DNA of 64,000 nt. Origin: an uncultured bacterium (lineage in GTDB: Bacteria > Oederibacteriota > JAAXVQ01). This document shows, in pieces, positions 43,326 through 60,141 of the stretch. How positions within the stretch are numbered: the stretch's first letter is position 1; each line of letters starts with the position of its first letter. A program made the translations under genes and the position numbers. The notes beneath the pieces are model-generated. The model had not been told where the DNA came from, searched no databases, and saw nothing but the letters and a program-made list of their open reading frames with translations. The stretch spans positions 1 to 64,000 of the forward strand of contig CAZSAP010000014.1 in the NCBI GenBank assembly GCA_964604705.1. Reading direction: 5' to 3'.

Positions 43326-43350
43326 GTAGGGGCGTATTGCATACGCCCCA
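43326..43350. repeat. Palindromic element copy (GTAGGGGCGTATTGCATACGCCCCAC)
   Basis: First island copy, 100 bp upstream of coiled-coil gene 1. The flanking sequence CCATTTATCC...CGCGATCTTTTTCCTAAGCACGCGTCT is repeated at 44795-44900. Confidence 0.7.
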
Positions 43351-43451
43351 CAATTATTGATCCTTTTCCCCGCGATCTTTTTCCTAAGCACGCGTCTCAA
43401 CAAACCGGTTGCAAAAGTCATAAAAAAGTTTACACTTAGCGGAGATAAGTT

Positions 43452-43775
43452 ATGAACGAAGAAGGGTCTATAACCATGTCCGAATTTAAAACCGTTATCG
43501 AAAGCTTTCAGTCTGACATAAAAAAGCTCGCTGAAGGCATGCAGCATGGCTTCGAAGTGGTAAACGCCGAGCTCAGCTATGTTAAAGCAGACATCCGTGA
43601 GCTCAAAGAAAAAACAGATCGCGTTGAAGTAAAAATTGACTCTCACACCGAACAAATCGCCCGTTTGCAGGAAGATGTTACGGACATTAAAAACTCTTTA
43701 AAACTAAAAGCGGACCGCGAAGAGTTCGCCAAACTCGAAATGCGCGTGACCAAGCTCGAAAACAAAGTCGCGTAA
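43452..43775 (+). CDS. Coiled-coil protein of unknown function (paralog 1)
   Basis: 107 aa, heptad-rich, no TM. Coding sequence and ~150 bp of 5' leader are duplicated at 44960-45304. Confidence 0.6.
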   Translation: MNEEGSITMSEFKTVIESFQSDIKKLAEGMQHGFEVVNAELSYVKADIRELKEKTDRVEVKIDSHTEQIARLQEDVTDIKNSLKLKADREEFAKLEMRVTKLENKVA

Positions 43776-43887
43776 ACTGTCCCAAACTGCCGGCACTTAT
43801 TAAAAAACCACAAAGGGCCGAATGAATTCATAAGCATCTAAATCCGTTTCAGGATTAAGCCCAGGCCCGTCAAAGGAATGTTTCGCT

Positions 43888-44745
43888 ATGCTTCAGCCGT
43901 GTGTGTGTTGCCAGCAGCAGGTTGCTCCCCTTGAGCAACAATCCATTGTCTGCAACCTCCGTCAGTTCCGTCAAAAGCAATTCCTCGTCTGGCGCTGTCC
44001 TCTATGCCGCAGCCTGCATCGCCAAGAGCCCATGGACTTGGCGCCCTATTATCGTGACTACCCTATCCATAAACTCGAACTGGATTTCTGGCTGCGCTTA
44101 CTCAAGGGCAATCTGGTAAGCCATCTCCGCCATGCCGGGCTTACACCCTCTGTTGCATTTCTTGACTTCGGCTGCGGCGCCGGTCTGCTCCTGCGCCTTT
44201 TGGCTGAAAAGGGCTTTACCCACCTGACCGGTTACGACCTTTACCACCCCGAATACAACCACCCTGAGGTGTTGCGCAACCGCTATGATTTTATTTTAGC
44301 CGAAGATGTCCTAGAACATGTGGATGACCCGCAAGCCTTGCTCAAGCACTGGCATGCGTTGCTCAACCCAGGCGGACGAATCCTTATCACCACGGTCAAT
44401 GCCGCGGGCATTGATCTGAACAAACCGGAAGCGTATCTCCACAGCCTGCATCAACCTTTCCACCCGCATATGTTTTCCCCGCAGGCCTTGGAGGACATGG
44501 CCAGGCGTGAATCGTTTCAGGTGCTCCGTTACTATAAGCGCTTCTACTACGACACGCTGATACCTACCGTGAACTATTCTTTTATGCTGGAATACCTTAA
44601 GGCCCAGGGCAATACGTTTGCCGTGGGTCCTGAGGTGGTTGATCTAAAGCTCTTCGTAACCAACCCTGCCTTGTTCTTCTATGCCTTCTTTGGCTATTTT
44701 TTCCCCAATCACGGACTCATGATGATGTTGCTGGAGAAAAAATAG
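43888..44745 (+). CDS. Class I SAM-dependent methyltransferase with N-terminal Cys4 zinc ribbon
   Basis: CVCCQQ...CPLC zinc ribbon. Motif I LDFGCGAG, motif II DFILAEDVLEHVDDP, motif III LNPGGRILITT. Confidence 0.75.
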   Translation: MLQPCVCCQQQVAPLEQQSIVCNLRQFRQKQFLVWRCPLCRSLHRQEPMDLAPYYRDYPIHKLELDFWLRLLKGNLVSHLRHAGLTPSVAFLDFGCGAGLLLRLLAEKGFTHLTGYDLYHPEYNHPEVLRNRYDFILAEDVLEHVDDPQALLKHWHALLNPGGRILITTVNAAGIDLNKPEAYLHSLHQPFHPHMFSPQALEDMARRESFQVLRYYKRFYYDTLIPTVNYSFMLEYLKAQGNTFAVGPEVVDLKLFVTNPALFFYAFFGYFFPNHGLMMMLLEKK

Positions 44746-44798
44746 ATCGCCTGTGTGCTTAACCGCACATGCATCGGCGTGTACCCATTTATCATTCC

Positions 44799-44824
44799 GT
44801 AGGGGTGTATTGCATACGCCCCTC
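44799..44824. repeat. Palindromic element copy (GTAGGGGTGTATTGCATACGCCCCTC) plus a half-copy at 44846-44860
   Basis: Between the methyltransferase and coiled-coil gene 2. Confidence 0.65.
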
Positions 44825-44959
44825 TAATGTTTACGCCCTTTTGTTTTACATACGCCCCACGATTATTCACTATTTCTCCGCGATCTTTTTCCTAAGCACG
44901 CGTCTAAACAAACCGGTTGCAAAAGTTTAAAAAAAAGCTACACTTGTCGGAGGCAGCAC

Positions 44960-45304
44960 ATGAACGAAGAAGGGTCTATAACCATGTCAGAGTTTAAAAC
45001 AGTTATCGAAGGGTTTCAGTCCGATATAAAAAAGTTAGCAGAAGCCACGCAGTTCGGTTTCGAGACCATGAACGCCGAGTTCCGCTATGTCAAAGCCGAT
45101 ATCCGCGAACTCAAGGAAAAAGTTGATCGTCTTGATGTGAAAACGGATCAACTCTCAACCAAGTCCGACTCCCACGCCGAACAGATAGCCCTTTTGCATG
45201 AAGACGTGACGGACATTAAAAATTCTTTAAAACTGAAAGTCGACCGCGAAGAGTTCGCCAAGCTCGAAATGCGTGTGACCAAGCTGGAAAACAAAGTCGC
45301 TTAA
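44960..45304 (+). CDS. Coiled-coil protein of unknown function (paralog 2)
   Basis: 114 aa. About 75% identical to 43452-43775. N-terminus MNEEGSITMSEFKTVIE and C-terminus REEFAKLEMRVTKLENKVA identical. Confidence 0.6.
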   Translation: MNEEGSITMSEFKTVIEGFQSDIKKLAEATQFGFETMNAEFRYVKADIRELKEKVDRLDVKTDQLSTKSDSHAEQIALLHEDVTDIKNSLKLKVDREEFAKLEMRVTKLENKVA

Positions 45305-45347
45305 CCCAAAACCTCCCCTCTAGCATTCCCTATTCTTGTATCCCGTA

Positions 45348-45465
45348 GTAGGGGCGTATTGCATACGCCCCTACGAATTTTCCATTTTCCATTCTCGATT
45401 CTCTGCCCTTCCCGCCTCTGTTTCGTTTGTCATCCCGGACCCCGATCCGGGATCCAGTGACTTTG
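45348..45465. repeat. ~120-bp direct repeat (copy 1) flanking the radical-SAM gene
   Basis: Palindrome plus CGAATTTTCCATTTTCCATTCTC...TGCCCTTCCCGCCTCTGTTTCGTTTGTCATCCC...GGGATCCAGTGACTTTG. Copy 2 at 46638-46788 carries a ~40-bp insertion. Confidence 0.6.
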
Positions 45466-45567
45466 TTTTCTGTTTTTGAATTTATTGATAGTCCATACCC
45501 CACCCTCATCCTTTAACGCCTATGCGCCGTTACTTAACCCAACAAGCCAACAAGGAAGCGTGAGATC

Positions 45568-58809: not shown

Positions 58810-58832
58810 GGACGTTTGCCATACGCCCCTAC
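58810..58832. repeat. Degenerate palindromic element copy (GGACGTTTGCCATACGCCCCTAC)
   Basis: Preceded by CCACTGCTTTTTG, as in the other copies. Confidence 0.5.
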
Positions 58833-58870
58833 GACCCGATCTTAAACCCGATCTTCTTTTTCTTTGGAGG
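58813..58870 (-). pseudogene. 3'-terminal remnant of an ORF6N gene
   Basis: Minus-strand frame ...ESEPPKKKKIGFKIGS* matches the last ~17 codons of copies B and C. No upstream ORF6N body. Confidence 0.5.
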
Positions 58871-58906
58871 TTCCGATTCAAGGATGAGGATTCATTTTAT
58901 GGGTTA

Positions 58907-59395
58907 TCAGTACCACCGATAGAACCAAACGACACAACCCAGACAGGAAAAAAACAAAGCTACTGCAATTGTATACAGTGTACCCATCCAATGCACGCCC
59001 TGTTTTAAAACCGCGTGTTCTGGATCACCCGGCTTAACAAACACCGGTACAACTTTGTTCACAGGAAAAATACGTTCAATGCTTGGTTGATTAAATACTT
59101 GGCCAAATTGGACTCTATCGCCTTTGTACATCTTTTTACCCACATAGTACCGATATTGTATTTTAGGGTAGTTAGGCCGAATACCAATTCCACCCGACCG
59201 TCCATAAGCGAGGGACTGGGCCTGTATTGCTTTTGACTCAAGTATAGTCCCATCAACACGGTTCCATGATTGGGTGTGAATACCTGAAATCACTTGGGTA
59301 GTTCCACTAAAAAGCTCATATGCGACAATAAGAAAAAGGAGTCCTGCACAAATCTTCAAAATAAAATCCGAAAAGTCTTTTTCTATAAATTGCAT
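58907..59395 (-). CDS. DUF3592-like small membrane protein
   Basis: N- and C-terminal TM helices flanking a soluble middle (TILESKAIQAQS...YRYYVGKKMYKGDRVQFG...VFVKPGDPEHAVL), the DUF3592 pattern. Confidence 0.55.
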   Translation of the reverse strand: MQFIEKDFSDFILKICAGLLFLIVAYELFSGTTQVISGIHTQSWNRVDGTILESKAIQAQSLAYGRSGGIGIRPNYPKIQYRYYVGKKMYKGDRVQFGQVFNQPSIERIFPVNKVVPVFVKPGDPEHAVLKQGVHWMGTLYTIAVALFFSCLGCVVWFYRWY

Positions 59396-59433
59396 GGGAG
59401 TATTCCCCTCCGTGTCATGAAACCGTGACCAGT

Positions 59434-59472
59434 GTCAACTTTGTAAAGTTAAACACATCTGTCCTTATCCGC
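59434..59472 (-). promoter_or_regulatory. Conserved palindromic promoter/operator-like motif (copy 3)
   Basis: GTCAACTTTGTAAAGTTAAACACATCTGTCCTTATCCGCC, 39 bp upstream of the DUF3592 gene start. Gene-sense reading contains TTGACA. Confidence 0.55.
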
Positions 59473-59501
59473 CAACCTACATCTGAACCCACTGCTTTTT
59501 T

Positions 59502-59525
59502 GGGGCGTATGCAATACGCCCCTAC
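59502..59525. repeat. Palindromic element copy (GGGGCGTATGCAATACGCCCCTAC)
   Basis: Abuts the stop codon of ORF6N copy C. Preceded by CCACTGCTTTTTT. Confidence 0.7.
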
Positions 59526-60028
59526 GACCCGATCTTCTTTTTCTTTGGCGTTTCCGGTTCAGGACGCAGCTCGTCGAGGACCTGAAACACTTCGTCCAGC
59601 TTGTGCTCATGCTGCATTAACTTCGTCTCGTGTTTGTTTAACTGGTTTAGCATAAAACCCTGCGGCCCCAGCTCAGCCCGCAAGGATATGAACCGGCGAA
59701 TGATTTGAATATTTACCTGAATGGCAGCTTCACTGTTGAGAACACTGGAGAGCATGGCGACACCATGTTCCGTGAATACATGCGGGAGATACCTTTGGCC
59801 ACCCCAACTTGAGGTCACAGTTTGTGACCTCAAGTCTGAAAACTCTTTAAACGTAAGGCGGAACATAAAGTCAGGTGGGAAACGGATACGATTACGTTTA
59901 ACAGCTTGGTTGAATACTTTGGTTTCCACCCCATACAACTCAGCAAGGTCACGGTCCAACATGACTTTCTGCCCGCGTATGAGATAAATTTTTCGTTCAA
60001 TGCGTTCAACCGGGACTAGTTCCGACAT
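59522..60028 (-). CDS. ORF6N-domain protein, copy C
   Basis: Near identical to copy B over the first ~50 aa. Ends PEPETPKKKKIGS. Start placed at MSELV (60026-60028). The same 85-bp leader (GACAGGAGTGTTGCGGAAAAATCGCAGGTAGAAGA) as copy A lies upstream. Confidence 0.75.
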   Translation of the reverse strand: MSELVPVERIERKIYLIRGQKVMLDRDLAELYGVETKVFNQAVKRNRIRFPPDFMFRLTFKEFSDLRSQTVTSSWGGQRYLPHVFTEHGVAMLSSVLNSEAAIQVNIQIIRRFISLRAELGPQGFMLNQLNKHETKLMQHEHKLDEVFQVLDELRPEPETPKKKKIGS

Positions 60029-60114
60029 ACTCACTCCTGATAGAGATTGGGTTTTTATTTGGACAGGAGTGTTGCGGAAAAATCGCAGGTAGAAGACACA
60101 TTTTGTTCGTATCC

Positions 60115-60141
60115 GTAGGGGCGTATTGCATACGCCCCTAC
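60115..60141. repeat. Perfect 27-bp palindrome GTAGGGGCGTATTGCATACGCCCCTAC
   Basis: Upstream of the ORF6N copy C leader. Confidence 0.75.

Follow-up and report, generated by a model that had tools for sequence, protein, structure and literature searches.

GTAG-tagged palindromes beside mfd in an uncultured bacterium are probably repetitive extragenic palindromes of the subclass 2.4 RAYT kind

Introduction

What are the closely similar palindromes that recur between the genes on one side of mfd in an uncultured bacterium assigned to Oederibacteriota (JAAXVQ01)? They lie in the first 64,000 nucleotides of contig CAZSAP010000014.1 (assembly GCA_964604705.1), hereafter the window, where all of them fall within positions 43326-60141. 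A sequence-only reading of this DNA had described eleven copies of a 27-bp perfect palindrome, and had likened them to repetitive extragenic palindromes (REPs) and bacterial interspersed mosaic elements (BIMEs) or to cassette recombination sites, with a role in cassette shuffling, mRNA 3'-end stabilisation or protein binding. We conclude with high confidence that the palindromes are GTAG-tagged REPs of the kind that accompanies subclass 2.4 REP-associated tyrosine transposases (RAYTs), presumably seeded by such an enzyme and then multiplied by duplication. The architecture of the repeat, its tie to subclass 2.4 RAYT genes across genomes, and its multiplication in the window by segmental duplication are demonstrated below.

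Results

The Palindromes Are One Family of GTAG-Footed Hairpins

A search of the window for GTAGGGGCGTATNNNATACGCCCCTAC with up to three mismatches returned eight sites, compared with none in 100 dinucleotide shuffles. Adding a core search and a repeat finder brings the family to eleven hairpins (Table 1), in agreement with the earlier count and placement. All of them are intergenic or overlap stop codons, and they are confined to 17 kb. The hairpin consensus is GGGCGTAT-(TGC/GCA)-ATACGCCC, and the unit consists of an unpaired 5' GTAG foot, a stem of 8-9 bp and a 3-nt loop. The GTAG stands directly at the stem foot in 10 of the 11 copies (the exception is 50137), and the stem bottom is formed by three G-C pairs (GGG...CCC) in all copies but 46640 (GGGT...) and 58810. 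The majority form is a 19-bp hairpin, GGGCGTAT-NNN-ATACGCCC, with GTAG on one side only; a mirrored 3' CTAC, giving a "double foot", is found at 45348, 55925 and 60115, and only these three copies are the perfect 27-bp palindromes that had been ascribed to the whole family.

Both loop orientations reported earlier are present, five copies pointing one way and six the other. Read from the GTAG, the loop is TGC throughout, or TAC in one variant, and the unit therefore has an orientation. The folding energy of the 27-mer is -12.6 kcal/mol for DNA (z = -6.7) and -20 kcal/mol for RNA, at a z of about -6.5; the RNA hairpins of the individual copies range from -16 to -24 kcal/mol. When the window was scanned for GTAG-tagged hairpins in general, 16 sites were found against 2.2 in shuffles, and nearly all of them belong to this family. 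One site outside the island, at 15877-15906, had been singled out in the sequence-only reading as a related hairpin; it is real, is of the GTAG...CTAC type, and is possibly a diverged member of a second REP type.

One statement about the surroundings of the copies had to be narrowed. Our own gene calls give 17 intergenic boundaries from mfd (which ends at 43113) to the open reading frame (ORF) that begins at 60233, and copies occupy 10 of these rather than nearly every one. The sequence CACTGCTTTTT, said to stand often before the palindromes, does precede three copies (55162, 58810, and 59502).

An Identical Repeat Occurs Across Phyla and Accompanies RAYT Genes

The superfamily of GTAG-tagged REPs was defined by Di Nocera et al. 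(2013; PMC3733652). The TnpA-REP subclass 2.4 of Quentin et al. (2018; PMC6006769), the counterpart of the group 4 RAYTs of Bertels et al. (2017; PMC5581495), is characterised by the protein motifs NH[IFV]H, WQ, and YIxNNP and by two types of REP: a "canonical long REP", whose stem bottom has three G-C pairs, and a "double foot" REP with 5' GT[AG]G and 3' C[TC]AC. Quentin et al. describe in-frame REP insertion within tnpAREP as unique to subclass 2.4, and a patchy spread over Cyanobacteria, Bacteroidetes and other phyla that is credited to horizontal transfer and loss. The window repeats show every structural feature of a REP and belong to a family already described in kind. The earlier comparison with REP/BIME elements thereby becomes specific, as the anatomy fits the published subclass 2.4 REPs; since the palindromes are of a known REP type, they do not constitute a new recombination system.

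The 23-mer GGGCGTATGCAATACGCCCCTAC was scanned for exact matches in one genome per species. Matches were found in at least 119 genome stretches, which span more than 14 phyla and include members of Atribacterota, Chloroflexota, Cyanobacteria, Gamma- and Alphaproteobacteria, Bacteroidota (including Ignavibacteria), Bacillota, Desulfobacterota-type lineages, Cloacimonadota, Zixibacteria, Omnitrophota, Fibrobacterota, Latescibacterota, Nitrospinota, and a bacterium of the Candidate Phyla Radiation (CPR). In these genomes the 23-mer stands singly or as a doublet in ordinary intergenic DNA, and its flanks are lineage-specific and repeated within a genome. Among adjacent pairs of 23-mers, 23 are inverted doublets with the GTAG outward, 25-170 nt apart, which is the architecture of BIMEs and of REP doublets forming hairpins (REPINs). 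All-against-all blastp clustering of the ORFs of the 119 REP-bearing loci yielded no recurring neighbour gene, only generic superfamilies. The exact 23-mer is also carried, in up to four copies each, by 26 viral or proviral stretches of IMG/VR (L137-L162), near which neither a RAYT nor an ORF6N gene was found; these contigs are possible vehicles of REP spread, or simply prophage flanks derived from the host. Other GTAG/CTAC palindromes stand beside the 23-mer in seven loci (L001, L025, L042, L059, L060, L068, and L103), for example GGGCGGGTTTTAAACCCGCCCCTAC, GGGCGAATGCAATTCGCCCCTAC, and GTAGGACAGGCGTCTCGCCTGTC, which indicates that several sister REP types coexist in one genome. Neither the exact sequence nor the peptides that it encodes were found in the searchable literature.

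The tie to a transposase is clearest in a metagenome-assembled genome (MAG) of Moraxella (L009), in which the exact REP stands on both flanks of a 176-aa ORF with the GTAG outermost. The encoded protein has the HUH motif HMH and a Y..NNP motif; it matches Pfam Y1_Tnp at 24.3 bits (cut-off 23), and its sole NCBIfam match is REP_Tyr_transpos, the REP-associated tyrosine transposase, at 78.7 bits, just below the cut-off of 80. It has 7604 homologues at E <= 1e-10, many of them named RayT by one source, and the motifs NH[IFV]H, WQ, and YIxNNP are present in the homologues, the Moraxella protein having M at the variable position (NHMH). A RAYT gene flanked by the identical REP, or containing it, is found in four genomes (L009, L120, L131, and L132). 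In Lonepinella koalarum, which also has REP doublets (L005), five tandem REP copies precede the homologue; in Acinetobacter puyangensis the REP is found upstream of the homologous gene, inside it, and 8 kb downstream.

The homologues are 162-294 aa long, and many of them carry a variable insert of translated REPs just before the conserved RSPSQTVGAIVRGYKS. The peptide GVCNTPL, the in-frame translation of the window REP, is present in 10 of the 120 best of the 7604 homologues; RGVLHTP is the opposite orientation of the same REP, and GELHSP, GECNSP, and GVCKTP are sister REPs. In one genome (L131) the insert is a complete REP doublet with the GTAG outward. The earlier suggestion to look for a RAYT was decisive in other genomes, where the same 23-mer flanks RAYT genes or sits inside them; the window holds no such gene.

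The inserts deserve a description of their own. The extra length of the RAYT proteins consists of up to about eight in-frame REP units that separate the HUH motif from RSPSQTVGAIVRGYKS (P0017, P0018, P0058, P0110, and others; L121-L131), with tandem examples such as ELHSPENAN repeated seven times and GVCDTNR repeated five times. All units are read in a single frame, and the final one invariably closes with CCCCTAC immediately before GG. The in-frame feature is outlined in PMC6006769, and the tandem expansion and fixed junction may merit separate study. In a Chitinophagales MAG (L121), a subclass 2.4 RAYT gene has hsdS on one side and hsdR on the other, within a type I restriction-modification operon, and an ORF6N-domain gene stands just upstream.

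Copies in the Window Were Multiplied by Local Duplication

Several of the eleven copies fall within segmental duplications and are therefore not independent. The 233-nt segments 55730-55962 and 59920-60152, the latter holding copy 60115, are 92% identical; 45351-45441 and 46639-46722 are 89% identical; and a duplicated coiled-coil module starts at 43325 and again at 44798. The second hairpin that two copies had been said to share is indeed common to them, as it lies in 68-nt segments that are 94% identical (49889-49956 and 55162-55229), and it is weak.

An ORF6N 3' end joined to a repeat is found three times, at copies 55925, 58810, and 59502. As noted in the sequence-only reading, two palindromes meet ORF6N stop codons: the TAG of ORF6N 55948-56469 lies within the minus-strand GTAG of copy 55925, and that of ORF6N 59522-60028 within the GTAG of copy 59502. 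The stop of a relic ORF6N gene at about 58833 likewise lies inside the GTAG of its repeat. On the minus strand a shared spacer follows the copies at 59525, 58832, and 55184, and in part those at 49911 and 50155, and carries, ahead of the next gene, a TAnnTTTG-like promoter motif.

Copies 45348 and 46640 have right flanks that are 89% identical, inverted loops (TTGCA versus TGCAA), and different left feet, a combination that either a flip of the hairpin or two independent insertions at the same site would produce. Directly after both copies runs a 7-nt periodic T-rich motif (runs of TTTTCCA and TTCTC, e.g., ATTTTCCATTTTCCATTCTC) at 45377-45403 and 46665-46691, which appears again about 130 nt further on, at 46797-46837.

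RNA Elements, Operators, and Cassette Boundaries as Improbable Alternatives

The stability of the RNA hairpins raises the possibility that the palindromes are RNA elements evolved in place, either intrinsic terminators or 3'-end stabilisers; such a role need not conflict with a REP origin. A stop codon precedes six copies at a distance of no more than about 135 nt, and two copies overlap one. It is established that E. coli REPs stabilise upstream mRNA, and stabilisation of mRNA 3' ends, as suggested earlier, is possible for the hairpins predicted here. As an account of where the palindromes come from, however, this is improbable. A T-tract in terminator position accompanies only one of the eleven copies (44799), and terminator-like sites in the region are not enriched (16 against 18.2 expected from shuffles). 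Both orientations occur, and copies 43326 and 60115 lie upstream of promoters. In addition, exact identity over more than 14 phyla cannot be the product of local selection for a terminator. For 42500-61000, a search of Rfam yielded nothing relevant at E <= 1, and a promoter/terminator scan gave nothing specific.

The perfect dyad is typical of protein-dimer sites, and the three ORF6N paralogues and the relic are each bounded by palindromes, which could then be operators or binding sites of the neighbouring ORF6N proteins in a local regulatory or partition-like system; the Chitinophagales MAG mentioned above has its ORF6N gene two genes from the RAYT homologue. We regard this as very unlikely. 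A tblastn search found no ORF6N gene near the 23-mer in the 119 genome and 26 viral stretches listed (145 in all), and the junction of an ORF6N 3' end with the REP was not found elsewhere, a single match in metagenome_contigs being due to chance. Within the window, five copies are not adjacent to an ORF6N gene, and the association of the other palindromes with ORF6N genes is explained by ORF6N modules having been duplicated along with their flanks.

The proposal that the palindromes are attC-like cassette boundaries of an integron-like or other site-specific shuffling system draws on their regular placement at 10 of the 17 boundaries, between small and unrelated genes, in a variable low-GC region that differs in relatives, yet it is scarcely credible, because Pfam scans of the island genes revealed no integrase or recombinase, the genes lie on both strands instead of forming co-oriented cassettes, the near-perfect dyads of 19-27 bp have no R''/L''-L'/R' boxes, GTTRRRY core or extrahelical bases, the identical motif also occurs elsewhere outside arrays, and nothing beyond ordinary duplication among paralogous modules speaks for cassette shuffling.

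Genomic Setting of the Repeats

The genes that follow mfd encode, in the order given by Pfam matches, two paralogous small coiled-coil proteins, a methyltransferase, a radical SAM protein, a response regulator, a helix-turn-helix (HTH) protein, and a YfiO-like lipoprotein. A low-GC block (38-44% GC) on the minus strand comes next, with genes for two proteins bearing type IX secretion system (T9SS) tails, one of them with DUF285 repeats, a Macro-domain protein, three ORF6N proteins, an M48 peptidase, and a DUF3592 protein. The closest named relative of Mfd is that of "candidate division FCPU426" (64% identity). Three mfd loci of relatives with 64-83% Mfd identity were compared with the window (L133, L134, and L135). 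The SurA-facing side of mfd is syntenic in all three, and the opposite side differs in each: a Tricorn-like gene lies upstream of mfd in the two more distant relatives (L133 and L134), and NTP_transf_8/DUF6788 genes with an HTH_Tnp_1 fragment do so in the remaining one. As gene content beside mfd differs among the relatives, the region is a variable hotspot, and it appears to be one throughout the lineage.

Table 1. Positions of mfd, the hairpin repeats (listed as REPs on their structure) and the ORF6N genes in the window
Feature	Coordinates	Strand	Sequence	Remarks
Related GTAG...CTAC hairpin	15877-15906		GGTAGGGGCGCATGTTCTGCCACCCCTACC	GGCGCATGTT common with second hairpin of the 68-nt segments
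mfd	39643-43113	-		Identified by Pfam
REP copy	43326-43349	+	GTAGGGGCGTATTGCATACGCCCC	Single 5' GTAG foot; divergent region between mfd and small coiled-coil gene
REP copy	44799-44821	+	GTAGGGGTGTATTGCATACGCCC	GTAG foot; one stem change, GGGGTG for GGGGCG; between methyltransferase gene and second coiled-coil gene
Decayed REP half-site	44834-44860	+	...ACATACGCCCCACGATTATT	Counterpart of 43326 in the duplicated coiled-coil 5' region
Double-foot REP	45348-45374	+	GTAGGGGCGTATTGCATACGCCCCTAC	Perfect 27-mer; 44 nt past stop of gene 44960-45304
REP copy	46640-46662	-		GTAG-first; one stem mismatch; 40 nt past radical SAM stop; start also taken as 46638
REP copy	49889-49911	-		Loop variant TAC; opens the duplicated segment 49889-49956, which includes the weak second hairpin GGCGCATGTTGTACGCC; start also taken as 49888
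REP hairpin	50137-50155	-		Intact GTAG foot missing, TGAG instead
REP copy	55162-55184	-		GTAG foot; part of duplicate 55162-55229; followed on the minus strand by AAAAAAAGCAGTG, then a promoter-like module preceding the DUF285/T9SS gene
Two tandem ORF6N genes	55317-56469	-		55948-56469 and 55317-55838; REP-bounded; paralogues of 59522-60028
Double-foot REP	55925-55951	+		Perfect 27-mer between the two tandem ORF6N genes
Degenerate REP copy	58810-58832	-	GTAGGGGCGTATGGCAAACGTCC	Several stem mismatches; abuts relic ORF6N 3' end (about 58833-58885)
REP copy	59502-59525	-		GTAG foot; at stop of ORF6N 59522-60028; followed by AAAAAAGCAGTG, then a promoter-like module preceding the DUF3592 gene
Third ORF6N gene	59522-60028	-		Bounded by REP 60115 (upstream) and REP 59502 (stop)
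Double-foot REP	60115-60141	+		Perfect 27-mer; about 87 nt upstream of start codon of ORF6N 59522-60028

Other repeats occur in and beyond the same region. The DUF285/T9SS gene (52714-55059, minus strand) contains a repeat array at 53255-54600 with a 75-nt period and 60-79% identity between units, whose spacings are 75, 147, and 222 nt. The 966-aa ORF at 60233-63133 has no significant Pfam match and is not the Tricorn-like mfd neighbour of the two more distant relatives; inside it, at 62226-62552, lies a GC-rich 9-nt periodic repeat (CCGCCCTTGCCG...) that codes for glycine/lysine-rich repeats on the coding strand. At the end of the window, the segments 63296-63461 and 63674-63839 (each about 165 nt, 378 nt apart) are 72-75% identical, which suggests tandem paralogous small genes.

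Discussion

Several observations weigh against the assignment to RAYT-mobilised REPs. No RAYT gene was found in the 64-kb window by tblastn with nine subclass 2.4 homologues and an approximate E. coli-like probe, the sole matches being REP-encoded peptides; a cognate enzyme in this organism is thus our assumption, and we infer mobilisation of the REPs by it from analogy with other systems. The palindrome is absent from 9-23 kb around mfd in each of the three relatives, so the repeats could have come with imported DNA and not by transposition in this host. Segmental duplication alone explains several copies. The other 47 kb of the window, with about 4.8 kb of non-coding DNA, contain no copy, and no inverted pair of the BIME/REPIN type lies within 200 nt inside the window. 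Inverted doublets are common in REP families, although they are not obligatory.

If the palindromes are subclass 2.4 REPs, as we favour, the following course of events may be proposed. The REP hairpin would form on single-stranded DNA, where a Y1 HUH transposase, presumably encoded once elsewhere in the genome, would recognise the single-stranded foot and hairpin, GTAG-GGGCGTATTGCATACGCCC. By analogy with studied RAYT/REP systems (PMC3333891, PMC3479197), the enzyme would cut and rejoin the strand and so seed copies in tolerant intergenic DNA. A few insertions would have reached the compositionally distinct variable region upstream of mfd and would have been multiplied passively there, as duplication and recombination acted on ORF6N genes, a small coiled-coil gene, and the promoter-bearing spacer. 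Two insertions would have fallen at the extreme 3' ends of ORF6N genes, so that the foot came to supply the stop codon. Possible side effects of the RNA stem-loops are 3'-end protection or attenuation of read-through. REPs very near stop codons can lower expression via ribosome stalling, an effect that by analogy could extend to the two ORF6N genes that take their stop codon from the foot.

A more active role can be imagined, in which the RAYT excises and reinserts REP-bounded segments, and in which the RAYT and its embedded REP doublet are transferred as one inseparable unit. Same-strand pairs of GTAG-footed hairpins do bracket whole ORF6N genes and promoter modules, and a REP doublet in frame inside a RAYT gene would mean that enzyme and substrate travel together, a reading that bears on the identity of the 23-mer across phyla. 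We consider the two proposals, taken jointly, to be a long shot; if they were true, REPs acting like IS200/IS605 ends would drive gene shuffling in the mfd hotspot.

The REP assignment has practical consequences for annotation. Hairpins of this family should not be labelled as terminators or recombination sites, and peptides such as GVCNTPL, RGVLHTP, and GELHSP in proteins annotated as "transposase" or hypothetical are translated REPs. Current understanding is otherwise unchallenged.

Among known systems, integron attC sites resemble the window palindromes in being palindromic and in standing between small accessory genes, and differ from them in their integrase, their boxes and extrahelical bases, the common orientation of their genes, and their restriction to arrays. 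The E. coli REP/BIME system with YafM (subclass 2.2; PMC3333891, PMC3479197) is closer: its REPs likewise combine a GTAG with a GC-rich hairpin, are extragenic and multi-copy, and are recognised and cleaved in single-stranded form by a Y1 HUH enzyme. Unlike the window repeats, those of E. coli form longer, bulged stems, are organised in BIMEs, are served by an enzyme of a different subclass, and are lineage-restricted, whereas the window 23-mer is identical across phyla. The REPINs of Pseudomonas (Bertels and Rainey, 2011; PMC3116915) are matched by the GTAG-outward doublets of the 23-mer in other genomes; the window copies, by contrast, are singlets or double-foot units, and the REPIN-RAYT systems of Pseudomonas are mostly vertically inherited.

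The closest likeness is to the subclass 2.4 systems as presented in PMC6006769. The window differs from these in having neither a RAYT gene nor inverted doublets, and its host, an uncultivated relative of candidate division FCPU426, belongs to a group that is not named in the available portions of PMC6006769 and PMC5581495. The repeats share with subclass 2.4 REPs the GT[AG]G foot, the stem bottom of three G-C pairs, and the double-foot variants; in other genomes the identical REP flanks a RAYT gene and sits in frame inside it, and its distribution is patchy over many phyla. The window thus adds a REP family for an uncultivated lineage near candidate division FCPU426, and the sharing of one exact 23-nt REP by more than 14 phyla and some viral contigs fits the horizontal spread of subclass 2.4 RAYT/REP units.

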